This document shows positions 2,694 to 11,995 of a DNA stretch of 19,700 nt, in pieces. Every line of letters starts with the position of its first letter. Within the stretch, counting starts at the first letter, position 1. The DNA is from a virus. The notes under the pieces are model-generated. The model was not told where the DNA came from, searched no databases, and saw only the letters and a list, made by a program, of their open reading frames with translations. A program made the position numbers and the translations under genes. The stretch lies in the UHGV virus genome UHGV-0129547. One strand, 5' to 3'.

Positions 2694-3056
2694 TCATTCA
2701 TTCCCCATTTCGGTGATGGTCAGTTCCAGCCTCCCACCTTTGGTAACAGGCATCTTCACAACGCGGTAATCAACGACCTGAGCATCATCCAGCCAGAAAC
2801 CTGCTTTAGTGAGTGCGTCAAAAGCGGCTTTTTGCAGATTATCCAGGTCACGGCGACGGCGATCCGGCATGTGGCACTCAATGCGGATTTTCACAGGAAT
2901 AGCCAGGCCGATATCCAGCATTGCGTTTTTAATGATTCGGGCGACGTTATCGCGGTATGCCTGCCCCTCTGCGCTGATGTGCGTGCGCCCGCGATTATGG
3001 CGGTAATAGCGATTATTGCTCGGAGGCCAGGGTAATGTGATGCTGTAGGTATTCAC
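2694..3056 (-). CDS. rusA: Holliday junction resolvase RusA
   Basis: 120-aa [29 protein letters not shown]...[11 protein letters not shown], essentially the E. coli DLP12 RusA sequence as I recall it; GTG start overlapping the ybcO stop (GTGA). Confidence 0.95.
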
Positions 3057-3343
3057 GCCTTAATAACCCCCCCTTTCAGCCAGATAACCTGTGTTCTCGC
3101 CATACCTTCCAGCGCGCATTCTTTTGCATACTCAGCATCGACAAAATGTGTGCGGCGGTCGATTTCGTCGTGACAGGCAGAACATGCAATGGTGGCAATC
3201 AGGTCTGGCGGTTTGATACCGGTACCGCACAATCCAGCCAGCCGGATATGTGCCAGTACTGACGTTTCAGGATTGCCATTACATACGCCAGGGATTCTTA
3301 CCTGGCATTCCCGACCACGCGCTGCTTTTCTCAAATCAGCCAT
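3053..3343 (-). CDS. ybcO: YbcO-like nin-region protein (DUF1364-type putative nuclease)
   Basis: From the internal ATG at 3343 the protein reads [35 protein letters not shown]...[11 protein letters not shown]..., matching DLP12 YbcO from memory; Cys-rich. Its start overlaps the ninE stop. Confidence 0.85.
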
Positions 3344-3506
3344 GATTCCTCCTTGCTGCCAGTCGCAACCATTTTTTATCAACCAGGCTGGCGGTATATC
3401 CGAGCAGTGTTGGTATTTCGGATGGTTTCAGCTCAGGCTTACGCTTACGACTATTTGGTACTCTGTAGATGTGTCCGTTCATGACACGAATAAGCGGTGT
3501 AGCCAT
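3336..3506 (-). CDS. ninE: NinE-like protein (56 aa)
   Basis: Manual translation: [56 protein letters not shown]. The ATG overlaps the ybcN stop (TAATG) and the stop overlaps the ybcO start, the classic translationally coupled nin arrangement. Below the ORF-track cutoff. Confidence 0.75.
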   Translation of the reverse strand: MATPLIRVMNGHIYRVPNSRKRKPELKPSEIPTLLGYTASLVDKKWLRLAARRNHG

Positions 3507-3961
3507 TACGCCTCCTGCTTGTCGCGCAGCAGCTGGAACTCGCAGCTCTGCGGAATAGTCAGGTGGCAGCCAATATTCATCGCCCAGGCTTCAACCTTAC
3601 ACAGGAAGACATACATCTCTCCGCTATCAAGATCGGAGGTATGACGTAATGACTGAATGGTGGTGATTTCACCGGTTACGACATCAACCAGTTCCTTGGT
3701 TTCATAACCGAGATAAGTGTGTTTGAGAGCATCTTTTACCCAAGCTGGAGTGGCGAACGTTTTCCCCCTGCTGATGAGGTATTCACTGATTTCGCTGTAC
3801 CACATGTGGCTGAGTGCATTCTGGGAAAGACTGCGTCTCTCACGCCACGGTTTAAGCACCATGCGAAAGCATTTGCCGTCCTCCAGATAAGGCTGGATCT
3901 GCCGACCGATAGCGGTGAAGTTGCCGCGATGCAATTTGATACCATCTTGTGGGAGGTTCAC
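3506..3961 (-). CDS. ybcN: YbcN-like nin-region protein (DUF1367)
   Basis: 151-aa [65 protein letters not shown]..., matching DLP12 YbcN from memory. Confidence 0.9.
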
Positions 3962-4155
3962 GCTTCACCTCCGCAGAGATCAAACGTTGGATGCAAAATA
4001 TCGCAGGTGCATTTCTGCATCTGTGAATGGAGAAGAGAGGTTAGATTGTATGTGCGCATAAACGTCCCCGTTTAGCGCAGAAGTCACCGGAGTTGTTCAA
4101 GCTCCAATGGCATGATTATGGCTGGTTGATTATGGGAAATCAAATGTGCTGAAAA

Positions 4156-4662
4156 TTAGTCTGCCAAGTCTTCCTCCGTCACAACTGGGTAATTCCAAAT
4201 ATCAAAAAAAGCTATAGCCTCCTGCCATTTGTTCCATAAGTTATCAAGTACTTGTGTAGGTTCCGTACTTTTAAAAACAGAAACAGCCGCATCACCGTTA
4301 TGAACTTCCTCGTACAGTTCCATTATTAGCAGATTAACAAAGTACTGTTTCAACATTAATGCCTGATTACCTTCTTTCTGCTGGCTATCCTGCTTGATGA
4401 TCTCCATCGCCCGTACCAGGCACCTGATGATATCCGCTGCATCATTAACGCTCCATTCAGATCCGCGCTTATCTTTAGCTGATGTATTGGCTCTCTCAGC
4501 GCAAGCCTTTAAAGACTCATAAAGGTAAACTCTATTTTGTAGCTGCAGCGCTTTTTTTGACGTGTACCAACTTGCAAGCGCCGACCCCGCTGCGGCTAAT
4601 GTGCCAAACGCAGAAATGCCTGCTGCTATTGCACTTAAGTCGGCACTGTCAAAGTTCCACAT
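4156..4662 (-). CDS. Hypothetical membrane-anchored protein (168 aa), accessory gene
   Basis: ORF in an AT-rich segment; N-terminal hydrophobic stretch (LSAIAAGISAFGTLAAAGSALASW) suggests one TM helix or signal anchor; the rest is charged and helix-like. Separated from the antirepressor gene by a terminator. No recognised family. Confidence 0.55.
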   Translation of the reverse strand: MWNFDSADLSAIAAGISAFGTLAAAGSALASWYTSKKALQLQNRVYLYESLKACAERANTSAKDKRGSEWSVNDAADIIRCLVRAMEIIKQDSQQKEGNQALMLKQYFVNLLIMELYEEVHNGDAAVSVFKSTEPTQVLDNLWNKWQEAIAFFDIWNYPVVTEEDLAD

Positions 4663-4842
4663 TATCGTTACACCTTATATAAATACCCCTCAGTAATATC
4701 CAATAAGGTATGTGAACAATCAATATAATTTTATCCGTATCGGCACATAGCGATTTAAATGCTACTGGTAATGGTATCTTTTAGATTATTTCGTCCAGTT
4801 TACAGCACCCGTATTTTATGAAATGGACTCGCACATTACCCC

Positions 4843-4881
4843 AAAAAATGCCAGCACTTCCGTTATCGTAGAATGCTGGCA
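4843..4881 (-). terminator. Putative Rho-independent terminator after the antirepressor gene
   Basis: Stem GCCAGCA/TGCTGGC (4849-4881) with a long loop; on the minus strand it is followed by TTTTTTGGGG (plus-strand CCCCAAAAAA at 4839-4848). Confidence 0.45.
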
Positions 4882-4900
4882 GTATTTCTAACTAGTGACT

Positions 4901-5569
4901 TTATTGCAACAGATTCTGACGGAAATATGGCAACACTCTGCTCCACTTATTATCCTGCCAAGGCTGGAGTTTTACATGTGCCGTTTCTCTGGCAAGGATT
5001 TCGCGCGCCTTATGTAGTATCTGGGGATATTCTTGCCCGATAGAAGTAAAGCGACCAGCTTCGCGGTGCTCCGCAACCTGAAGAAGTGGAGTAACATTCT
5101 GGCAGGCGGTTAACATCACATCCCCTGCTCGCCATAACCAAGCAAGTGTGCAAAGTTCGTTATCAGTGAATTGTTTTATGATTGGGGATTGTTGAACTTC
5201 TCGATCGAGAATATCCAGAACCCAACGGCGGAACTCTTTGGCTACAGGAGTGCGGGCGAACATGGCGATCAAATGGGCTCCGCGGAGAGAGAAAACACGT
5301 ACTTTCTTCTTCAAGTTTCGAGTACTTTTCGAGGTACTCAGATCAAGTACCTCGACATCATTCTCTGAGGTACTGACTTCAAGCACTCTAGTCATACTAC
5401 TGGAAAATTCGTCAGCATATTTGTTGTAAATCATCGTGACTGCGCGACTATTCGAATACTTCAGTGCTCTTGCTAGGTTGGATGAAGTTAGCCATATTCC
5501 GGCAATATTTGCCACTGGCACTAGTGCTTCACCTTGGAAGTTCAGATCTGATGTTGCTACAATACTCAT
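4901..5569 (-). CDS. Antirepressor-like protein (Bro-N/KilA-N-type motif)
   Basis: Segment GAHLIAMFARTPVAKEFRRWVLDIL matches the conserved P-x-AK-x-F-x-x-WV motif of Bro-N/antirepressor domains (compare P22 Ant ...SKLPSAKRFKRWV...). Lies immediately downstream of an Arc-like gene and divergent from a Mnt-like gene. Preferred start is the ATG at 5569 (AAGGA 8 nt upstream); the ORF-track start at 5650 has a weak SD and overlaps the arc-like stop. Confidence 0.6.
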   Translation of the reverse strand: MSIVATSDLNFQGEALVPVANIAGIWLTSSNLARALKYSNSRAVTMIYNKYADEFSSSMTRVLEVSTSENDVEVLDLSTSKSTRNLKKKVRVFSLRGAHLIAMFARTPVAKEFRRWVLDILDREVQQSPIIKQFTDNELCTLAWLWRAGDVMLTACQNVTPLLQVAEHREAGRFTSIGQEYPQILHKAREILARETAHVKLQPWQDNKWSRVLPYFRQNLLQ

Positions 5570-5639
5570 GTCGATATTTCCTTCGCGGTTATTTTCGATA
5601 GAAGCCCCTAAGGTTGCCGCCAGTGGGGCTTCGCTGTTT

Positions 5640-5798
5640 CTAGCGAGCATGTATCCGTGCTCTAAATTTCAATGCCCATACAAGCGCCTGAACAATAGCT
5701 GCGTTCTCAGACATCCCTTCCTCCTGAGCAATTCGCTTGAATTCATCCTTCACTTTTTGCGGATAGCGAAGGGTAATTTTTACCTCTTTCTTTTCCAT
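5640..5798 (-). CDS. Arc-like ribbon-helix-helix repressor (52 aa)
   Basis: From the ATG at 5798 (GAGG 8 nt upstream): MEKKEVKITLRYPQKVKDEFKRIAQEEGMSENAAIVQALVWALKF..., with the RHH pattern of P22 Arc (basic N-terminal beta strand followed by two helices). Confidence 0.7.
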   Translation of the reverse strand: MEKKEVKITLRYPQKVKDEFKRIAQEEGMSENAAIVQALVWALKFRARIHAR

Positions 5799-5810
5799 TG
5801 ACATAACCTC

Positions 5811-5875
5811 ATGAGGCCACAATGACACCATGAGGCCATAATGCCACCATTGAATTGATGTGGCAATATGGCACC
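5811..5875. promoter_or_regulatory. Tandem direct repeats in the arc/mnt divergent intergenic region; putative RHH-repressor operators
   Basis: ATGAGGCCACAATGACACC (5811-5829) and ATGAGGCCATAATGCCACC (5830-5848) are adjacent 19-bp near-identical repeats; a third degenerate copy TGGCAATATGGCACC lies at 5861-5875. They sit between the divergent Arc-like and Mnt-like starts. Confidence 0.4.
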
Positions 5876-5897
5876 ATTCATTTTTTTGGGGGTTCCA

Positions 5898-6215
5898 ATG
5901 GCTGACAAACAAGTAAAAGACTACGATAAGTTTAACCTCCGTTTCCCCGATGGGATGCGTGAAGCTATAGCTGAACGAGCCAAACGAAACGGGCGCTCAA
6001 TGAATTCAGAAATCATTCAAATACTCCAAGATGCCATAGAAGGAAGTTCTGAACTATCTAAACGTTTAAATTTAGTTGGGTTTATTCGAGGTGACAGAGA
6101 GATACGTGACCTGGAAGATAATGCAAGCAAACTTGCGTTGTATATCGATCATAGAACACAAGAGTTTAAACAAATTTTATTGGAAGATTTAAAATTACTC
6201 CTTAATCATGATTAA
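5898..6215 (+). CDS. Mnt-like ribbon-helix-helix repressor
   Basis: From the ATG at 5898: MADKQVKDYDKFNLRFPDGMREAIAERAKRNGRSMNSEIIQILQDAIEG..., strongly resembling P22 Mnt (...FNFRMPMEVREKLKFRAEANGRSMNSELLQIVQDAL...) from memory. Confidence 0.75.
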   Translation: MADKQVKDYDKFNLRFPDGMREAIAERAKRNGRSMNSEIIQILQDAIEGSSELSKRLNLVGFIRGDREIRDLEDNASKLALYIDHRTQEFKQILLEDLKLLLNHD

Positions 6216-6259
6216 TGTTAACATTTTCCCAAAATCCAATTGATAGAGGAGTTATTTAT

Positions 6260-6613
6260 ATGCGTATTAAAATCATGCCTCTCCCAAGTACTATCCAAAT
6301 GGGCCAAAAAAAACGGACAACAAGTGCAGCAGTATCCACAACGTTTTTTGGCCCAAATAGTCTTAAACCACAAGGAGATAGCCTTGAAAATACAGCAAAG
6401 AAAAACTCTTCAATTTTGCGAGAAAAAAACTACAGAAAAATTGCTGAAACACTATATAAAACTGGGGTCATAACTATGGCAACATTTGATAGAGAATGTA
6501 ATTTAGGAGGTAAAGACAGAAAGTACTTGCGACATATTTTTTCCCTACTTTTGTCAGAAAAAATCAAATCAAAACAAATCAGAATAACCCGCAAGAAAAA
6601 ACAGAACAAATAA
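6260..6613 (+). CDS. Hypothetical basic (Lys/Arg-rich) protein, 117 aa
   Basis: ATG at 6260 preceded by GAGGAG with an 8-nt spacer, directly downstream of the mnt-like gene; very AT-rich, with a Lys-rich C-terminus (...IRITRKKKQNK). Could be spurious low-complexity coding. Confidence 0.35.
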   Translation: MRIKIMPLPSTIQMGQKKRTTSAAVSTTFFGPNSLKPQGDSLENTAKKNSSILREKNYRKIAETLYKTGVITMATFDRECNLGGKDRKYLRHIFSLLLSEKIKSKQIRITRKKKQNK

Positions 6614-6692
6614 AACGCCAGCGAAAACTTCTCTTTATTTTCATAAGAAAAGAGCATAATTACCAGTTTTCCATATAATCCATAAGTTATGC

Positions 6693-6986
6693 TTATGCTG
6701 TAGTCCTCCCATATACCGCCAACACCCGCTTCATCGCGGCACTCTGGCGACACTCCTTAAAAATCAGATTCGTGCTCACCTTTCCTTCCCGTTCTTCTCT
6801 GGTAGCGAACCGGTAATACACCGTTCGCCAGACCTTACCATCAATGACCAGGATTCCTGCCCGCGCCATTTTAGCCGCAGCCTGATTTATGCTGGTTACT
6901 GTTGCGCCTGTTACCGCGGTAACGTCCTGCGCACAGAAGCTCTTATGCGTCCCCAGGTAATAAATAATTGCCTCTTTGCCCGTCAT
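6693..6986 (-). CDS. ren: Ren-like protein
   Basis: 97-aa ORF MTGKEAIIYYLGTHKSFCAQDVTAVTGATVTSINQAAAKMARAGILVIDGKVWRTVYYRFATREEREGK..., near-identical to lambda Ren as I recall it; located immediately downstream of P with ATGA overlap. Confidence 0.85.
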   Translation of the reverse strand: MTGKEAIIYYLGTHKSFCAQDVTAVTGATVTSINQAAAKMARAGILVIDGKVWRTVYYRFATREEREGKVSTNLIFKECRQSAAMKRVLAVYGRTTA

Positions 6987-7684
6987 ACACTTGCTCCTTT
7001 CAGTCCGAACTTAGCTTTGATTTCTGCGATCTTCGCCAAAGCCTGTGCACGATTTAGAGGTCTACCGCCCATGACAGGAAGTTGTTTTACTGGTTCAGGT
7101 ATAGCCTCACCACGGTTAATTAGCGCGTTCATACAGGACAGTTCATCGGCAGCCTTGCGCCGTAATTCCGCGTCAGTCAACGCATTGGCCCGCATATTCT
7201 GGTACAGGTTGGTAACCAACCAGTAGTGCGCGTTTGATTTCCATGGATAAGACTCTGCATCTGGATACAGGCCACGCTTCCGGCAATACTCGTAAACCAT
7301 ATCAACCAGCTCGCTGGTGTTTGGTAGTCCGGCAATAACGGATGCTTCTTCCCGGCACCAGGCTACAAACTGCCCGGGTGATGGCAGGAATGGTCGATTC
7401 TGCCGACGGGCTACGCGCATTCCTGCGTTAACCTGTTCCATTGTGGTGATCCCGTTTTCCCGGAAAGCCAGAACCCACTGGCGGCGGATTTCGTTCAGTT
7501 CGTTCTGGTCCCGGTTAGCCAGGCTCGCCGGGAAAGTTGCCAGTAACTGGCTGAACACACCATTGATGATCTGCGCTACCTGCTGTACCTGCGGCTTTTC
7601 GTCGTACTGTTCCGGCATGTTGTTGGCGATCCGGCGCATCTGCTCACGGTCAAAGTTAACCATCTGTGCGGCGATGTTTTTCAT
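6983..7684 (-). CDS. P: Replication protein P (DnaB helicase loader)
   Basis: 233-aa ORF MKNIAAQMVNFDREQMRRIANNMPEQYDEKPQVQQVAQIINGVFSQLLATF...AKFGLKGASV, essentially lambda P from memory. Confidence 0.95.
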   Translation of the reverse strand: MKNIAAQMVNFDREQMRRIANNMPEQYDEKPQVQQVAQIINGVFSQLLATFPASLANRDQNELNEIRRQWVLAFRENGITTMEQVNAGMRVARRQNRPFLPSPGQFVAWCREEASVIAGLPNTSELVDMVYEYCRKRGLYPDAESYPWKSNAHYWLVTNLYQNMRANALTDAELRRKAADELSCMNALINRGEAIPEPVKQLPVMGGRPLNRAQALAKIAEIKAKFGLKGASV

Positions 7685-8610
7685 AAATCCACCCCGTAAA
7701 TCCAGTCAGTGTTTGTCAGGTCGAGTTTTGGTTTTCCGGCTGTCACGCCAGCCTGTTGTTTGTTACGATTGATTTCGAGCTGGGTCCACTTGTCGCGAAG
7801 TTTAGCCGGGCTCAGCACGTTACCGGACCAGAAGTTGTCCTGGCATGCCCAGCGGAACAGCACGCACATGTCGCGGTGGTTACGTCCGTCACGTTCACGC
7901 ATCAGGCGGATATCGTTAGCCCACCCTGCAAAATTCGGTTTTCTGGCTGAGGGCGCGATGGTCTTCACCATGTCAAACATCCACTCTGCGGCGGTCAGGT
8001 CTTCTGCTGTCCCCCACTTGCTGCCGCTCTGAATTGCAGCATCCAGTTTCTCCAAAGGAAAGTCGTTTTCTGGCTGGTCAGAGGATTCGCCAGAATTCTC
8101 GGACGAAAAAGGTTTTATATTGTCTTTTGTTAGTTTGTCTTTTGTGTTTACCTGATTCGGGTAAACGCCTTTACCTGATTTGGGTAAACTTTTCTTACCT
8201 GATTCAGGTAAATTTACCTCTTTCAGGTAAACTTTATTTTTCTTACCTGATTCGGGTAATGTTGACCATTCACTGACCACATTATTAATGCCGATATTCC
8301 GCCCACTCTGAATAAAAATCCCACGCTTTACCAGAACGCTTTTTGCAGCAGAACACTTGTGCGGCAATATCCCGGTTAACTCGGAAAGTTGCTCGTTGCT
8401 CACCCAATCCAGTTTTTTATTAAAGCCATATGTTTTGCGCATGACAGCCAGGAAGACCAGAAGCTGGTGCTGTGTTAATCCGGCCAGCATTACAGCTTCC
8501 AGCAACTCATTTGCAATGCGCGTATAACCATCATCGAGATCTGCCACGCGCGGCTCCTTTTGTGCCACATCCGGCACTGGAAAATTGAATATCTCAGCAG
8601 TGTTTGCCAT
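7681..8610 (-). CDS. Replication initiator O-like protein
   Basis: From the ATG at 8610 (GGGAGG 4 nt upstream): MANTAEIFNFPVP...; the central region is encoded by the iteron repeats and the C-terminal domain (...WANDIRLMRERDGRNHRDMCVLFRWACQDNFW...) is lambda-O-like. Overlaps the P start. Confidence 0.85.
   Translation of the reverse strand: MANTAEIFNFPVPDVAQKEPRVADLDDGYTRIANELLEAVMLAGLTQHQLLVFLAVMRKTYGFNKKLDWVSNEQLSELTGILPHKCSAAKSVLVKRGIFIQSGRNIGINNVVSEWSTLPESGKKNKVYLKEVNLPESGKKSLPKSGKGVYPNQVNTKDKLTKDNIKPFSSENSGESSDQPENDFPLEKLDAAIQSGSKWGTAEDLTAAEWMFDMVKTIAPSARKPNFAGWANDIRLMRERDGRNHRDMCVLFRWACQDNFWSGNVLSPAKLRDKWTQLEINRNKQQAGVTAGKPKLDLTNTDWIYGVDL
8121..8261. repeat. Origin of replication: five ~19-bp iterons plus adjacent short direct repeats inside the O gene
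   Basis: Iterons TTACCTGATTCGGGTAAAC (8148-8166), TTACCTGATTTGGGTAAAC (8171-8189), TTACCTGATTCAGGTAAAT (8196-8214), TTACCTCTTTCAGGTAAAC (8215-8233), TTACCTGATTCGGGTAATG (8243-8261), each with internal dyad symmetry (TTACC...GGTAA). They are flanked by TGTCTTTTGT repeated at 8121-8130 and 8136-8145. This parallels the lambda ori arrangement (iterons then AT-rich segment within O). Confidence 0.8.
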
Positions 8611-8696
8611 AATTCCTCCCGCAATGAGTGTGTTACGATTTGCACCTGAAAGTCGGTTCTGTTCGCGCAGACCGGCTTTCGCCATTTCTGAACCTG

Positions 8697-9236
8697 TCAT
8701 ATTGCCCCCAGCATGGTGGTGACCATCGCCATCAGTGGACCAGCCAAATCCGGGTCCACACGAAACATCGACACAATGCCTTCACTCATCTCCTTCAGTT
8801 TCTGGTGGCGTGGTGCGTTGAGAATGACAGCCTGTTTTGCCTCACTGAGTTCCTTTTCCATTTCAGCCAGCCGAGCCATGAAGCTATCCTGCTCAACCAG
8901 GTGGCCGCGATATTTCAGCGGTAGTACTGCCAGAATTGCTGGAGTCAGTTCACGCACGTTATTTCGGTATTTTTCAGAATCGAATTTGTTATCGAGAAAG
9001 CGGAACAGCTTCTGGCGTGCACGACTGACATCATCAGAAAAATCGATAGTGCCGCCGCCCTGTGCTCGATACTCATTCACAATGAGTGCGGCAACGACAT
9101 CCTGATTATCTACAGCCGACCAGGCGCGGATGGCATCACGGATTTTTTCGTGGCCTGGCACCTGTTTTATTTGAGAACGATTTATCACCGCAGTCGGGAT
9201 AAATCCGCTAGTCTGTTGGTATGTAAGTGGTTGCAT
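8697..9236 (-). CDS. YdaT-like protein (Rac-type, cII position)
   Basis: Contains ...RAQGGGTIDF... and ...LTPAILAVLPLKYRGHL..., resembling Rac prophage YdaT (QGGG and IPAILAILP motifs) from memory; located downstream of the Cro-like ydaS-type gene. Start at 9236 or 9242. Confidence 0.65.
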   Translation of the reverse strand: MQPLTYQQTSGFIPTAVINRSQIKQVPGHEKIRDAIRAWSAVDNQDVVAALIVNEYRAQGGGTIDFSDDVSRARQKLFRFLDNKFDSEKYRNNVRELTPAILAVLPLKYRGHLVEQDSFMARLAEMEKELSEAKQAVILNAPRHQKLKEMSEGIVSMFRVDPDLAGPLMAMVTTMLGAI

Positions 9237-9604: not shown

Positions 9605-10297
9605 ATGAAAAAAGAAACTCTTGCTGATCGCTTAAACCTAGCGATGGAACAATCTGGAATGTCTCAAGGCGCTCTTGCAAAGGCGTCTGGCGTAGCTCAA
9701 CCCACAATCTGGAGACTGACAAGCGGCAACGCGCGCGGCTCAACAAAAATTGTTGAAATAGCTAATGCATTGGGTGTTCGAACAGAATGGCTCTCATCAG
9801 GCATAGGCCCGATGAGAAATGACGGTCAACAATCAGGGAAGCCTGCTGTCAGCCATTCCAAATACTTCAAAATTGACGTTCTTGATATAGAAGTCAGTGC
9901 CGGGCCGGGTGTAATCAACCGTGAGTTTGTAGAAGTTCTACGCTCGGTTGAGTACTCGTTTGACGATGCTCGTCACATGTTCGATGGCAGGAAGGCGGAA
10001 AATATCCGCATCATTAACGTGCGTGGTGACAGCATGTCAGGAACGATCGAACCAGGTGATCTGCTGTTCGTTGATATCACGGTTAAATCTTTCGACGGTG
10101 ATGGTATCTATGCGTTTCTGTACGACGACACAGCCCATGTAAAGCGTCTGCAAATGATGAAGGATAAGCTGCTGGTTATCTCTGATAACAAGAGCTACTC
10201 ACCGTGGGACCCGATCGAGAAAGACGAGATGAACCGGGTGTTCATCTTCGGTAAGGTTATTGGGAGCATGCCGCAGACGTATAGGAAGCATGGGTAG
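9605..10297 (+). CDS. CI-type phage repressor (N-terminal HTH, C-terminal S24/LexA-like peptidase domain)
   Basis: From the ATG at 9605: MKKETLADRLNLAMEQSGMSQGALAKASGVAQPTIWRL... (HTH) followed by ...NVRGDSMSGTIEPGDLLFVD...AHVKRLQ... (S24 Ser/Lys autocleavage module). The ORF-track start at 9569 is a TTG inside the putative -35. Confidence 0.85.
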   Translation: MKKETLADRLNLAMEQSGMSQGALAKASGVAQPTIWRLTSGNARGSTKIVEIANALGVRTEWLSSGIGPMRNDGQQSGKPAVSHSKYFKIDVLDIEVSAGPGVINREFVEVLRSVEYSFDDARHMFDGRKAENIRIINVRGDSMSGTIEPGDLLFVDITVKSFDGDGIYAFLYDDTAHVKRLQMMKDKLLVISDNKSYSPWDPIEKDEMNRVFIFGKVIGSMPQTYRKHG

Positions 10298-10343: not shown

Positions 10344-11192
10344 ATGTCTTCGATTTGGGGAAAAAAGTTGATGACGAAAGAACAAGAGTCAAACACTGAT
10401 GAAGTGAAACCAGAGCAAGGAAGTTTGTTTGAATTAGAATTTCATGAATATACACCTTCAAGCTTAGGCACAGCACACCTTTCTGGTTTCGCTATTGCCA
10501 CTGATGAAATGGAATATGCAGTTAAAAGCATGCGCTCCACCCCACCTTTTCCTGTACAAAACCCAACTCAAGTACCGGCAGCGGAATGGTTTTGCACAAA
10601 TTTAGCTGAAAAATGCGGCATCGCTACACCTGTGTGCAAAATTCTCAAGTGTATTGCTAATGGGGAGTATGTTTTTGGCTCTCGCATAGAGTTTTCAGCC
10701 TGGAAATCTGGTCTCAATAGTCCTCAATGGATAAATTTGCTCTCAAATGCTTCTGAATCCTTAAAGAAGCAACTCTGGGCAATTTATGCATTTGATCAGT
10801 TTGTATATAACATTGACAGACACCTCAACAACTACTTATACATGGAAAACACCCGAGGCAATGTTATAGTTAAAACATTCGATTTTAGTCTAAGCTCTTT
10901 TGTTATAGGCTGGCCACGAAATACCCCTCATATACTACCAACAGACTCCAGTACAACAACAAACTGGACGATTGCTAAACAATTCATTGGCGACACTGAT
11001 GATCTGAGAAAGTGCGCATTATCTGTCCTTGACAAAATTGAAAAAATTGGAGTTGAGGCTATATCTGATATACTTAACTCTATGCCTGAAGCATGGATGC
11101 CACCAATGCATAAGGAGTATTTTTTGAAGTGGTGGGACAGCGAGGAGCGAATCGATAGGCTAAATGCCATAAGACTGGAGATAACATCTTGA
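10344..11192 (+). CDS. Kinase-fold protein with HipA/PI3K-like catalytic loop (282 aa); candidate effector of a lysogen-expressed two-gene system
   Basis: ATG at 10344 with AGAGG 6 nt upstream, 46 nt after the repressor stop. Residues 158-163 DRHLNN (10815-10832) match the DxHxxN / DRHxxN catalytic loop of HipA-like and PI3/4-kinase-like folds; FDFS at residues 179-182 resembles the Mg-binding DFG-like/YDLVS motif that follows it in HipA. AT-rich coding sequence. Much shorter than canonical HipA. Confidence 0.6.
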   Translation: MSSIWGKKLMTKEQESNTDEVKPEQGSLFELEFHEYTPSSLGTAHLSGFAIATDEMEYAVKSMRSTPPFPVQNPTQVPAAEWFCTNLAEKCGIATPVCKILKCIANGEYVFGSRIEFSAWKSGLNSPQWINLLSNASESLKKQLWAIYAFDQFVYNIDRHLNNYLYMENTRGNVIVKTFDFSLSSFVIGWPRNTPHILPTDSSTTTNWTIAKQFIGDTDDLRKCALSVLDKIEKIGVEAISDILNSMPEAWMPPMHKEYFLKWWDSEERIDRLNAIRLEITS

Positions 11193-11995
11193 AAACTTTC
11201 AAATACAGCTTAATCAGAGTTACACCGAACTTAGAGAAAGGTGAAACGATTAACGTTGGTTTGATCGTTTACCATGACTCTGACATAGACGTACGTATGC
11301 TCAATTCAGTTTCAAAACTTAAAGCGATTGACAAAGATCTTACCTTAGATTACTTAGAGGATCTTTCGACCTCGCTTTTTGATTTGTCACAAAAAATCAA
11401 CAATGCTGAACTTCTTCCTTGTCTTTTTAAGGGAGCATTATCGTTATCGTCATTTGGCATGTTCACTCTTCAAGCCAACGAAGATTACGAAGCTAAAGTT
11501 ACTGATCTAATGAATCGGTTAGTAAACCCACAAAAACAGCCACATAAACACTTGAAAAAAAAGGTTTTTTCTGAATTAAAATCCACCTTTATACAACATG
11601 GAATTTTCAGTAAGTATTTTGAAGATCTTTCCCAACATAAAATCGTAGCTAATTATCCAATTAGTAATGAAGAAGGGTTAGTTGCAGATTTTTTGTTAAA
11701 AAATGGCAAATACCATCTTACAGAAACATTAGATTTTCGTTCTGAAAATATAAAAAAACAAATGGGTGAAGCTGCGATAAGTGTTTTAACAATTACTAAA
11801 GCCTACGAATTATACAATTCAAATATTGATTCATTTGTAATTTTTGCCGCTGAAACGACAGCACAAGAAAAGTCAGCAAAACAGCAGCTAAATCTACTGG
11901 AAAAACACGCTGATAATCTTATCAACGCATATAGCAAAGAAGACATGCGTTCATATTACGAAAAGATGCTGAATGCTGCCTCTATGTTACAGTAG
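11189..11995 (+). CDS. DUF3037-like protein (268 aa), partner of the kinase-fold gene
   Basis: TTG start at 11189 overlapping the upstream TGA (T-TGA coupling), GGAG 10 nt upstream. N-terminus ...YSLIRVTPNLEKGETINVGLIVY... matches my recollection of the DUF3037 N-terminal signature (R-x-V-P-x-x-x-x-G-E-x-I-N-V-G). AT-rich. Followed by a terminator. Confidence 0.6.
   Translation: MKTFKYSLIRVTPNLEKGETINVGLIVYHDSDIDVRMLNSVSKLKAIDKDLTLDYLEDLSTSLFDLSQKINNAELLPCLFKGALSLSSFGMFTLQANEDYEAKVTDLMNRLVNPQKQPHKHLKKKVFSELKSTFIQHGIFSKYFEDLSQHKIVANYPISNEEGLVADFLLKNGKYHLTETLDFRSENIKKQMGEAAISVLTITKAYELYNSNIDSFVIFAAETTAQEKSAKQQLNLLEKHADNLINAYSKEDMRSYYEKMLNAASMLQ

Follow-up and report, generated by a model that had tools for sequence, protein, structure and literature searches.

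In several temperate phages the antirepressor gene is kept silent in the lysogen. This is the case for the LexA-controlled antirepressors of the Gifsy and SPC32H types and for the immI region of phage P1, organised as c4 antisense RNA-icd-ant; P1 also makes use of an antisense RNA, and its ant gene has two in-frame starts (Ant1/Ant2). The closest described relative of the locus presented here is the immI region of phage P22, whose Ant is known from the literature to inactivate both P22 C2 and lambda CI. An Ant with a P22-type C-terminal domain, encoded in the early region of phage Phi24B before qut, speeds prophage derepression, and late-promoter activation after induction was shown to be faster (PMC3064807). 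A passage of the same paper cites the antirepressor of phage 2851 as promoting derepression (PMC3064807).

The window analysed here, a stretch of 19,700 nucleotides of phage DNA, contains what reads as a complete P22-style 'second immunity' cassette: two small repressors, an antisense RNA and an antirepressor gene. All parts have homologues in related cassettes, the layout is conserved, the spacer repeats are non-random and conserved, the RNA hairpin covaries in a strand-specific manner, and the promoter motifs are conserved. From these sequence comparisons, we put at roughly 80% the probability that the locus is a functional immI-type antirepressor control cassette, part-by-part homologous to P22 mnt-Pmnt/Pant-arc-sar-ant and carried as cargo in the ren-ybcN gap of a lambdoid coliphage. 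This kind of switch is already well understood and the cassette is not a new system; its genome position is less usual. The features discussed below are, in window coordinates:

3506-3961, minus strand: ninB/ybcN, flank of the cargo insert
3962-6692: low-GC cargo insert between ninB/ybcN and ren, holding the cassette and two further ORFs
4156-4662, minus strand: extra ORF in the gap (PHROG 1779)
4843-4881, minus strand: hairpin resembling an intrinsic terminator, with a U6 tract, shortly after the ant stop
4901-5569, minus strand: ant-like gene, 222 aa, N-terminal Bro-N and C-terminal P22_AR_C
5534-5563, plus strand: Psar-like promoter, lying within codons 2-5 of ant in antisense orientation
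5571-5635, plus strand: sar-like antisense RNA, ~65-70 nt, with a 5' hairpin and a 3' terminator hairpin
5640-5798, minus strand: arc-like gene encoding an RHH repressor of 52 aa, at the head of the ant operon
5811-5877: candidate operator array of three ~21-bp pseudo-palindromic units, from repeat statistics and conservation
5811-5831: unit R1, ATGAGGCCACAATGACACCAT, spanning +1 to +20 of the putative Pant
5830-5850: unit R2, ATGAGGCCATAATGCCACCAT, spanning the putative Pant -10
5857-5877: unit R3, GATGTGGCAATATGGCACCAT, spanning the putative Pant -35
5838-5866, minus strand: Pant-like promoter, predicted to drive arc-ant (promoter scan 9/12; invariant core)
5898-6215, plus strand: mnt-like gene, 105 aa, RHH at residues ~7-51 and a C-terminal tail of ~50 residues
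~6260-6613, plus strand: extra ORF in the gap
6693-6986, minus strand: ren, flank of the cargo insert

The initial annotation had described a Mnt-like RHH gene diverging from an Arc-like RHH gene that is followed by a gene with a Bro-N-type motif. All three ORFs were recovered with Pfam matches, and mnt is transcribed divergently from the arc-ant operon, as in annotated P22 immI. The Mnt-like protein matches the Arc/Mnt RHH family (PF03869) at 5e-20, and its best PDB match is 1MNT (1.7e-8), followed by AmrZ. For the Arc-like protein, Pfam Arc gives 22.6 bits (9.5e-5; cutoff 20.4), Arc entries are matched in PDB, and the PHROG Arc-like repressor family is matched at 4.4e-9; a Shine-Dalgarno GAGG (5810-5807) lies 8 nt upstream of its ATG at 5798. 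Alignment to the P22 proteins by BLASTP, proposed earlier as a check, returned 47% identity over 49 aa for Mnt, 36% over 45 aa for Arc and 22% over 99 aa for Ant, the last in the C-terminal part only. The Mnt likeness is confined to the RHH region: PF11423 (Repressor_Mnt, the tetramerisation domain), which P22 Mnt itself matches at 1.6e-20, was not found in the window's Mnt-like protein in the same Pfam comparison, and the C-terminal tail of the latter has no sequence similarity to the P22 domain and cannot be aligned with it. Mnt C-tails vary among related cassettes, and this one is possibly a different oligomerisation tail. Without the tetramerisation domain of P22 Mnt, the protein may differ in oligomeric state and cooperativity.

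The Ant-like protein, named 'Rha protein' in GenBank, matches both Bro-N (PF02498, 6.3e-9) and P22_AR_C (PF10548, 2.5e-16; 60 bits, cutoff 22.4), as well as PHROG anti-repressor Ant families, down to 2.9e-48. The profile search thus recovered the Bro-N domain recognised earlier together with an antirepressor domain. P22 Ant consists of P22_AR_N (4.6e-44) and P22_AR_C; Pfam did not find P22_AR_N (PF10547) in the window's protein, whose N-domain is Bro-N. This composition bears on an alternative in which the shell is immI-like and the Bro-N/P22_AR_C protein is something other than an antirepressor of the resident CI. It could be an early protein that binds DNA or is directed at the host (Roi-, Rha- or KilA-like), or it could induce other prophages in trans, with Mnt, Arc and sar silencing a gene toxic or detrimental to lysogeny. 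Functions vary among Bro-N proteins, and the GenBank name agrees with such a role; a Bro-N + P22_AR_C gene occupies the same slot of phage PhiR26_1 with neither RHH genes nor sar. Moreover, the cassette is intact in DLP12-type remnants devoid of cI, cro, O and P, where it is sensible only if its target lies elsewhere or if it is neutral there. Strain 2017.02.03CC is one example of a strain with a cassette-bearing DLP12-type remnant. We nevertheless regard this alternative as unlikely, given that P22_AR_C is common to P22 Ant and the functionally tested Phi24B Ant. Among relatives, P22_AR_N and Bro-N both sit behind the same regulators, and this interchangeability behind the same arc, sar and operators suggests equivalent roles. 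In JCKP02, a CI 99% identical to that of the window accompanies an 81%-identical Ant, though the prophages are related throughout.

The antirepressor reading also draws on the divergent spacer (5799-5897), which is exactly 99 bp long and bears out the two adjacent near-identical 19-bp repeats and degenerate third copy reported there: R1 and R2 are identical at 19 of 21 positions, and the degenerate R3 scores 12/21 when read in direct register and, compared with R2 in inverted register, 15/21. The best 19-mer direct repeat (17/19) was not reached in any of 1000 dinucleotide shuffles (shuffle maximum 15). R3 was also scored as an 18-nt inverted repeat at 83%, a value of 15/18 being reached by 3 of 1000 shuffles. 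The 10-mer ATGNCACCAT occurs three times in the 19.7-kb window, always within the spacer (expected 0.2; 0/200 shuffles). A core from 5816 to 5877 is nearly invariant in one cassette related at 91% and in one Stx-phage cassette related at 85%, while the flanks have diverged, and relatives have inverted arms GGGGCCAACTTGACA...TGTCAAGTTGGCCCC at homologous places. By direct reading, the left half, GAGGCCAC, is similar to AGGTCCAC, the Omnt half-site of P22. A comparison of 19 distinct cassettes took in the operators together with the beta-strand residues and N-terminal arms: the arms vary, and the units at the centre and on the right follow the type of Mnt N-terminus, a pattern that is confounded by recombination and does not assign R1-R3 to Arc or Mnt.

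The Pant-like promoter combines a -35 TTGCCA (5866-5861), aligned with the consensus TTGACA in relatives, a 17-nt spacer and a TG-extended -10 CATTAT (5843-5838); transcription would start near 5831. For Pmnt, the promoter scan returned none, leaving weak candidates such as ATGCCA-17-CAATAT. A minus-strand promoter match inside the 5' end of mnt (5908-5880) was taken as chance, total matches being not above those in shuffles. Control of ant by LexA was considered and rejected: no SOS box lies near the cassette, the SOS-box consensus has no match anywhere in the window with up to three mismatches, and CTGT-N8-ACAG matches in the window are at chance level, with none within 4700-6300.

Three further elements were absent from the initial annotation: a sar-type antisense RNA, its promoter, and a terminator downstream of ant. 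The sar-like RNA is complementary to the ribosome-binding site and start codon of ant; the loop of its 5' hairpin bears the anti-Shine-Dalgarno UUUCCUUC, and its terminator hairpin pairs GAAGCCCC (5601-5608) with GGGGCUUC (5625-5632), followed by GCUGUUUCU. The element aligns directly with P22 sar and has a minimum free energy fold of -24.6 kcal/mol (z=-2.45). Rfam RF00262 (sar) matches 5571-5635 over its full length (1-68/68) with 34 bits and E=1.7e-4, below the gathering score of 43. A purpose-built covariance model, covering the terminator hairpin only, gave 58 matches, and of the 51 related cassettes retrieved, nearly all contain the sar element. Apart from one partial minus-strand hairpin match (L004), all matches are on the sar (antisense) strand, where they typically adjoin or slightly overlap the 3' end of the arc ORF. 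Across the hairpin, 99.1% of cells are paired and 8 of the 11 pairs show compensatory changes; frequent G-U pairs place the constraint on the sar strand. Beside the sub-threshold Rfam score, this covariation is independent support for both structure and strand.

The Psar-like promoter consists of a -35 TTGGAA (5534-5539), an 18-nt spacer and a TG-extended -10 TACAAT (5558-5563), scoring 9/12 plus TG in the promoter scan. The motif gTGGAA-N17/18-TTGCTAyAaT followed by TCATG is conserved across cassettes, P22 included, and together with the adjoining ant ATG in 40 distinct ones; the P22 sar promoter is annotated at the equivalent place. The likeness to P22 immI put forward for mnt, arc and ant is in this way extended: gene order and orientation are those of P22, Mnt and Arc have structure matches, and sar, its promoter and its terminator occupy P22-equivalent positions. 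The 4843-4881 element, a hairpin of ~12 pairs (CUGCCAGCAUUC / GAAGUGCUGGCA) followed by UUUUUU, is the counterpart of the terminator annotated after P22 ant; the terminator scan missed it because its loop is longer than the scanner's 8-nt limit.

The sar element also bears on where ant begins. The ORF ends at 4901 on the minus strand and is open back to an ATG at 5650, from which databases (GenBank/RefSeq) annotate a protein of 249 aa. The start at 5569 favoured in the initial annotation is better backed: this ATG (5569-5567) is conserved beside the sar start in 40 distinct cassettes, aligns with the P22 Ant start and has GAAGGA 9 nt before it, whereas 5650 has no good Shine-Dalgarno. The annotated start is thus probably to be corrected to 5569. 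Use of both ATGs would yield two isoforms, a short one controlled by sar and a long one which, the 5650 ATG overlapping the last arc codons, would be translationally coupled to arc and escape antisense control; the two in-frame Ant1/Ant2 starts of P1 offer a likeness. The 27 codons between the two ATGs are indeed open in the window, and the long ORF is the one annotated in databases. In 21 of 40 distinct cassettes an ATG lies in frame at -27 or -28 codons with no intervening stop, and 18 of 31 representatives keep the ant frame open across 22 upstream codons, versus 7 of 31 per other frame, but these counts are not independent, the cassettes being phylogenetically related. Stops interrupt the extension in P22 and in about half of the cassettes, and the sar terminator hairpin with its U-tract already accounts for every conserved nucleotide of the extension. 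On balance we find two isoforms rather improbable.

The lambda/DLP12-type nin setting proposed for the cassette holds, its flanks being ren and ninB/ybcN. GC content is 0.32-0.48 in the insert versus roughly 0.50-0.58 in the flanks, and other phages with near-identical flanks hold different cargo in the same gap: the ren-ybcN gap is a recurrent cargo slot. The mosaic joint described earlier is therefore not a unique one, as the slot is recurrent and the cassette family occupies at least three genome positions, namely the nin cargo slot, a site between tail genes of Stx phages, and the P22 late-operon position (relatives L029, L030, L037 and L049). The two extra ORFs in the gap have no Pfam or PADLOC match; a defence-system identity for them and for Ant was rejected, with no PADLOC match and no Pfam defence support.

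Nearly all of 51 IMG/VR loci preserve the mnt(+)/arc(-)/ant(-) arrangement, and wherever flanking genes are recognised within ~5 kb, arc-ant points the same way as the operon around it (nin, tail or P22 late). The window's own variant is rare, being present in about 19-20 of 5426 complete E. coli genomes and in phage PhiR5_1 (a phage record; listed host E. coli C), whose cassette is 100% identical. Rarity and residence in a variable low-GC cargo slot are what a decaying relic without current function might display. Such decay is very improbable here: the three ORFs, both promoter motifs, the RNA hairpin and the terminator are all intact, parts are conserved at 91-100% in independent genomes and the deposited phage PhiR5_1, and the operator units are conserved while flanks diverge.

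A functional cassette would operate as follows. In the lysogen, the Mnt-like RHH protein would be made from a weak rightward promoter and occupy the 21-bp units over the Pant -35, -10 and +1, keeping arc-ant silent. Once Pant fires, after infection or loss of Mnt, the Arc-like repressor would be produced first and rebind the promoter region, turning the operon off after a burst. The sar-type RNA (~65-70 nt), starting at the ant start codon, would pair with the ant ribosome-binding site and reduce Ant translation. Ant (Bro-N + P22_AR_C) would inactivate a CI-type repressor by non-covalent binding, probably the resident S24-type CI (9605-10297) and possibly also repressors of co-resident lambdoid prophages. 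The CI/YdaS-type immunity region named in the initial annotation is present, this CI being encoded with YdaS/YdaT-type partners, and the cassette would add a second immunity layer to it. CI has an S24 autocleavage domain, so Ant is not needed for SOS induction.

The arc-ant genes are co-directional with the pR operon. Because this operon is N-antiterminated (O-P-ren -> ... -> ninB-Q), pR read-through after initial derepression would be expected to yield Ant as well and to silence mnt by antisense transcription, a feed-forward effect expected to make induction faster. A stronger version, in which, within this branch of the family, a long Ant isoform made through arc coupling bypasses sar and, with the pR co-direction, turns the cassette into a read-through induction accelerator or a cross-prophage inducer, is likewise unlikely; a cross-inducer role, if true, would also explain the intact cassette in cI-less DLP12-type remnants.

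The cassette reveals no new mechanism. It shows the whole control logic of P22 immI, overlapping promoters included, moving as a single unit among lambdoid phages, between the nin slot, tail genes and the P22 late-operon position, with the N-domain of its effector, Ant, swappable within it. For PhiR5_1-like phages and E. coli prophage induction, it predicts a second, CI-independent immunity and induction input, and it flags a so far unannotated small RNA of the sar type in these phages.

Compared with other silenced antirepressor genes, the window differs from the Gifsy and SPC32H types in having RHH proteins as regulators and no LexA box near the cassette, and from P1 immI in that its RNA is sar-type, not c4-type. 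The Bro-N + P22_AR_C gene of Escherichia phage PhiR26_1 occupies the ren-ybcN slot too, and its DNA is 91% identical to the window across the 3' portion of ant and the flank downstream, but PhiR26_1 lacks RHH genes and sar there and has a PD-lambda-1 defence gene adjoining. In the Stx phages (2851, Stx2a_WGPS8 and relatives; Pankowvirus), the cassette lies between minor tail genes L and K. It shares with the window ~85% DNA identity in the mnt N-terminal region and operator core, the R2/R3 units, the layout, and a sar element with Psar, whereas its Ant is P22-type (P22_AR_N + P22_AR_C, 79% identity to the P22 C-part) and its Arc has only 27-33% identity with the Arc of the window (27% by alignment, 33% by BLASTP).

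With P22 immI itself, the window shares divergent mnt and arc-ant with RHH homologues of Mnt (47%) and Arc (36%), a sar-type RNA whose promoter lies within the 5' end of ant and whose terminator hairpin precedes the arc stop, a C-terminal P22_AR_C in Ant, a terminator after ant, and co-direction of arc-ant with the surrounding operon. It departs from P22 in its Bro-N domain in place of P22_AR_N, a Mnt C-tail unrelated to PF11423, three related ~21-bp units instead of two distinct operators (Omnt, Oarc), the lack of a sieA neighbour, and its place between ren and ybcN in the early (nin) region, whereas the P22 cassette lies in the late operon, flanked by injection-protein gene 16 and tailspike gene 9. 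In this last respect Phi24B offers a parallel: the Ant of the window differs in its Bro-N N-domain, and its C-domain is only distantly similar to the P22 type, but both phages are lambdoid coliphages with an antirepressor carrying a P22-type C-terminal domain in the early right operon, and the effect of Phi24B Ant matches the feed-forward role that orientation suggests for the window cassette.

The initial annotation proposed a P22 immI-like antirepressor module in a nin region, with a Mnt-like gene, an Arc-like gene and a gene with a Bro-N motif. This order is borne out by the open reading frames and profile searches, and gene order, domains and homology to P22 show that the module is real and was correctly interpreted. 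Its parts, with Pfam E-values, are:

5898-6215, plus strand: Mnt-like ORF, 105 aa (Arc/Mnt ribbon-helix-helix, RHH, 5e-20)
5799-5897: divergent mnt-arc spacer, 99 bp
5640-5798, minus strand: Arc-like ORF, 52 aa (Arc/Mnt RHH, 9.5e-5, above the curated cutoff)
ending at 4901, minus strand: Ant-like ORF, 3' of the Arc-like gene (Bro-N, 6.3e-9; P22_AR_C, 2.5e-16)

PHROG names the proteins Arc-like repressors and anti-repressor Ant. The closest solved structures to the RHH proteins are Mnt (1MNT) and Arc; the same search found no solved relative of the Ant-like protein. Direct comparison with P22 gives 47% identity across the 49-residue RHH domain of Mnt, 36% across 45 residues of Arc, and 22% for Ant, limited to the C-terminal 99 residues. 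P22 Ant consists of P22_AR_N and P22_AR_C, and P22 Mnt has the PF11423 tetramerisation domain; since Pfam detects neither P22_AR_N nor PF11423 in the window's proteins, the N-terminal domain of the effector and the tail of Mnt have been exchanged.

The spacer does contain the two near-identical direct repeats and degenerate third copy ascribed to it, which are candidate operators, and a promoter scan places a leftward promoter across them:

5811-5831: repeat R1, 19/21 identical to R2
5830-5850: repeat R2
5857-5877: repeat R3, a degenerate copy that fits R2 better inverted
5866-5838, leftward: Pant-like promoter (-35 TTGCCA at 5866-5861, 17-nt spacer, TG-extended -10 CATTAT at 5843-5838)

When the spacer was shuffled 1000 times with dinucleotides preserved, no shuffle reached its best 19-nt direct repeat (17/19). 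R3 matches inverted R2 at 15/21 positions and, scored as an 18-nt arm at 83%, was equalled in 3 of 1000 shuffles. Each unit is weakly self-symmetric and about 21 bp long, as long as the Arc operator annotated in P22 (21 bp) and only slightly shorter than its Mnt operator (23 bp). Across the 19.7-kb window, all three copies of the 10-mer ATGNCACCAT fall within this spacer. Furthermore, the core at 5816-5877 is near-invariant in JCKP02, a related prophage with a nin-located cassette (91%-related), and in a tail-located Stx-phage cassette (85%-related), while its flanks diverge.

The leftward promoter match overlaps R3 and R2, which places R1 at about +1 to +20. More distant relatives carry perfect inverted arms, GGGGCCAACTTGACA ... 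TGTCAAGTTGGCCCC, at homologous positions, each with a consensus TTGACA inside; the two face opposite ways, the design of the annotated overlapping divergent promoters of P22. For the rightward mnt promoter, the scan of the region returned no match, and weak candidates were seen only by eye. A second leftward promoter-like match (TTGTCA-17-AAAAAT, 5880-5908, minus strand) lies within the first mnt codons and could be due to chance or be a further promoter for arc, antisense or upstream.

In P22, ant translation is controlled by the antisense RNA sar, and the arc-ant junction of the window aligns to the P22 sar region with clear nucleotide homology:

5571-5635, plus strand: sar-like RNA, a full-length match to Rfam RF00262 (E=1.7e-4) whose 34 bits fall short of the gathering score of 43
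5534-5563, plus strand: Psar-like promoter from the promoter scan (TTGGAA, 18-nt spacer, TG-extended TACAAT), in ant codons 2-5

The predicted fold has two hairpins: the 5' loop includes a stretch complementary to the Shine-Dalgarno sequence of ant, and the 3' hairpin, GAAGCCCC/GGGGCUUC, precedes a U-rich tract. The promoter match aims at the ant start codon, as does the annotated sar promoter of P22. A covariance model built from four cassettes and searched against the window, P22 and 50 related loci gave 58 hits, with nearly every cassette represented. Hits are antisense to ant, except for one partial minus-strand hairpin hit (in related locus L004), and typically abut or slightly overlap the 3' end of the arc ORF. 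In the resulting alignment, which was fitted to the model itself, 99.1% of hairpin cells are paired and compensatory double changes are present in 8 of the 11 pairs; in controls with a slid register, pairing dropped to 30-60%. G-U pairs are abundant, and since they would correspond to C-A mismatches in the ant mRNA, they show that the constraint acts on the plus strand. The motif gTGGAA-N17/18-TTGCTAyAaT and the adjoining TCATG, which includes the ant ATG, are kept across 40 distinct cassettes. Judged by sequence, a sar-type antisense RNA is thus a part of the cassette absent from the initial annotation.

The same element bears on where ant begins. Both GenBank and RefSeq annotate the gene, as 'Rha protein' in PhiR5_1 and 'P22AR C-terminal domain-containing protein' in RefSeq, from an ATG at 5650, 27 codons upstream, overlapping arc and running through the sar element. 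We prefer the ATG at 5569-5567, as initially annotated, because it is conserved and aligns with the P22 Ant start, follows GAAGGA at 9-nt spacing and falls exactly at the start of sar. The database start is probably wrong, or else marks a second, longer isoform. Such an isoform would fit the extension being open in the ant frame in 18 of 31 representatives (7 of 31 for each other frame) and the presence, in 21 of 40 cassettes, of an ATG 27 or 28 codons upstream in the same frame; however, the sar hairpin also accounts for all conserved bases of the extension and P22 has stops within the corresponding stretch, which makes it improbable. A counterpart of the P22 ant terminator lies just 3' of the ant stop codon:

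about 4843-4881, minus strand: terminator-like hairpin of ~12 pairs followed by U6

The window is from a lambdoid phage whose nearest relative is Escherichia phage PhiR5_1, with 100% identity over 4700-6700 and 98% across the alignable 73% of the window. The gene order, cI (HTH and S24 peptidase), YdaS-type cro, YdaT-type cII, O, P, ren, insert, ninB/ybcN, ninE, ybcO, rusA, ylcG and Q, agrees with the CI/YdaS-type immunity region and ren/ybcN flanks described earlier. The insert is distinct in composition:

about 3962-6692: cargo insert, GC 0.32-0.48 (flanks roughly 0.50-0.58)
4156-4662, minus strand: ORF of 168 aa, hydrophobic at its N-terminus (PHROG 1779, of unknown function)
about 6260-6613, plus strand: lysine-rich ORF of about 117-132 aa with no family hit, in 32-36% GC DNA

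Neither of these two ORFs flanking the cassette matched a Pfam family or a PADLOC defence system, and the 4156-4662 ORF accompanies the cassette only in its closest relatives. The mosaic joint was correctly located between ren and ybcN, but it is not a one-off event: between near-identical flanks, Lambda_4C10 carries emrE and a hydrolase and JCKP02 a GNAT gene with the cassette, so the joint is a recurrent cargo slot. In Escherichia phage PhiR26_1 (3702-6625) the slot holds a Bro-N/P22_AR_C gene adjoining a PD-lambda-1 defence gene, and neither RHH genes nor a sar element were found there.

Elsewhere in the window, a HipA-like kinase (10344-11192, plus; Pfam HipA_2, 1e-6) and a DUF3037 protein (11189-11995, plus) lie immediately downstream of cI; the pair weakly matches the PADLOC candidate defence pair PDC-M66A/B, and its counterparts in PhiR5_1 are annotated HipA toxin and HipD antitoxin. 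On the far side of the Q antiterminator gene (2100-2486), the late-promoter region holds an AraC-family regulator (83-796, minus; HTH_AraC, 2.3e-13) and a 214-aa ORF (1407-2051, minus) with no Pfam family.

A pattern scan of IMG/VR, for which the Mnt-like protein served as query, recovered 51 loci, nearly all with the mnt(+)/arc(-)/ant(-) layout and with several Ant N- and C-domain combinations behind similar regulators; a few (e.g. L029/L030, L040/L042, L044 and L052) had no Ant-like ORF with a match to the reference proteins. Positions among these loci include:

ren-ninB gap: L002, L005-L015
between tail genes L and K: L004, L016
between gp16 and tailspike of P22-like phages: L029, L030, L037, L049

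Among 5426 complete E. coli genomes, 889 match some part of a 2-kb query, mostly either the 3' end of ant or the mnt/operator segment also present in Stx-type cassettes among tail genes; only 19-20 contain the arc/sar/operator variant of the window. Full-length Ant has 19 relatives among deposited phages at >=80% length coverage, and among deposited E. coli phages only PhiR5_1 has a near-identical copy. Some strains keep an intact cassette at argU, in a remnant of DLP12 type that has lost cI, cro, O and P, which suggests retention independent of a resident CI. One such defective prophage, in E. coli 2017.02.03CC (NZ_AP027748, 4983-6695), has intact mnt-arc-ant at 98-100% protein identity and a truncated ren adjoining intD. 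Another locus, IMGVR_UViG_2839585306_000004 (about 2700-9100), reads as a tandem array of immI-type cassettes, with five sar-like hits (3585, 4731, 5643, 7579 and 8256) and at least three divergent RHH pairs plus two or three Ant-like genes within ~6 kb; at one RHH pair there are two nearly identical palindromic operators of 17 bp, GGTAGCC-AAT-GGCTACC.

The roles of Mnt, Arc and Ant in P22 immI are established (PMC8022706). By homology, the Mnt-like protein would hold Pant off in the lysogen, the Arc-like protein would provide delayed self-shut-off, sar would limit Ant translation, and Ant would inactivate the CI-type repressor non-covalently; we infer every binding step, and the identity of Ant's target, from P22. 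The arc-ant genes are co-directional with the pR operon, to which mnt is antisense, and this arrangement relative to the host operon is kept wherever flanking genes were recognised within ~5 kb in related loci (nin, tail and P22-late). This placement downstream of pR suggests feed-forward at induction, besides P22-style bipartite immunity. The window scan found no LexA box near the cassette, which is not an SOS-controlled antirepressor of the Gifsy or SPC32H type.

P22 Ant also targets lambda CI, and the early-region Ant of Phi24B, with a P22-type C-domain, speeds late-promoter activation after induction (PMC3064807). Similar findings are cited in that paper for phage 2851, whose cassette shares 85% DNA identity with the mnt/operator segment of the window. 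On sequence grounds, the cassette is not a new kind of system; it belongs to the immI family but has a swapped N-domain in its effector and a different tail on Mnt, and it is located in the nin slot.
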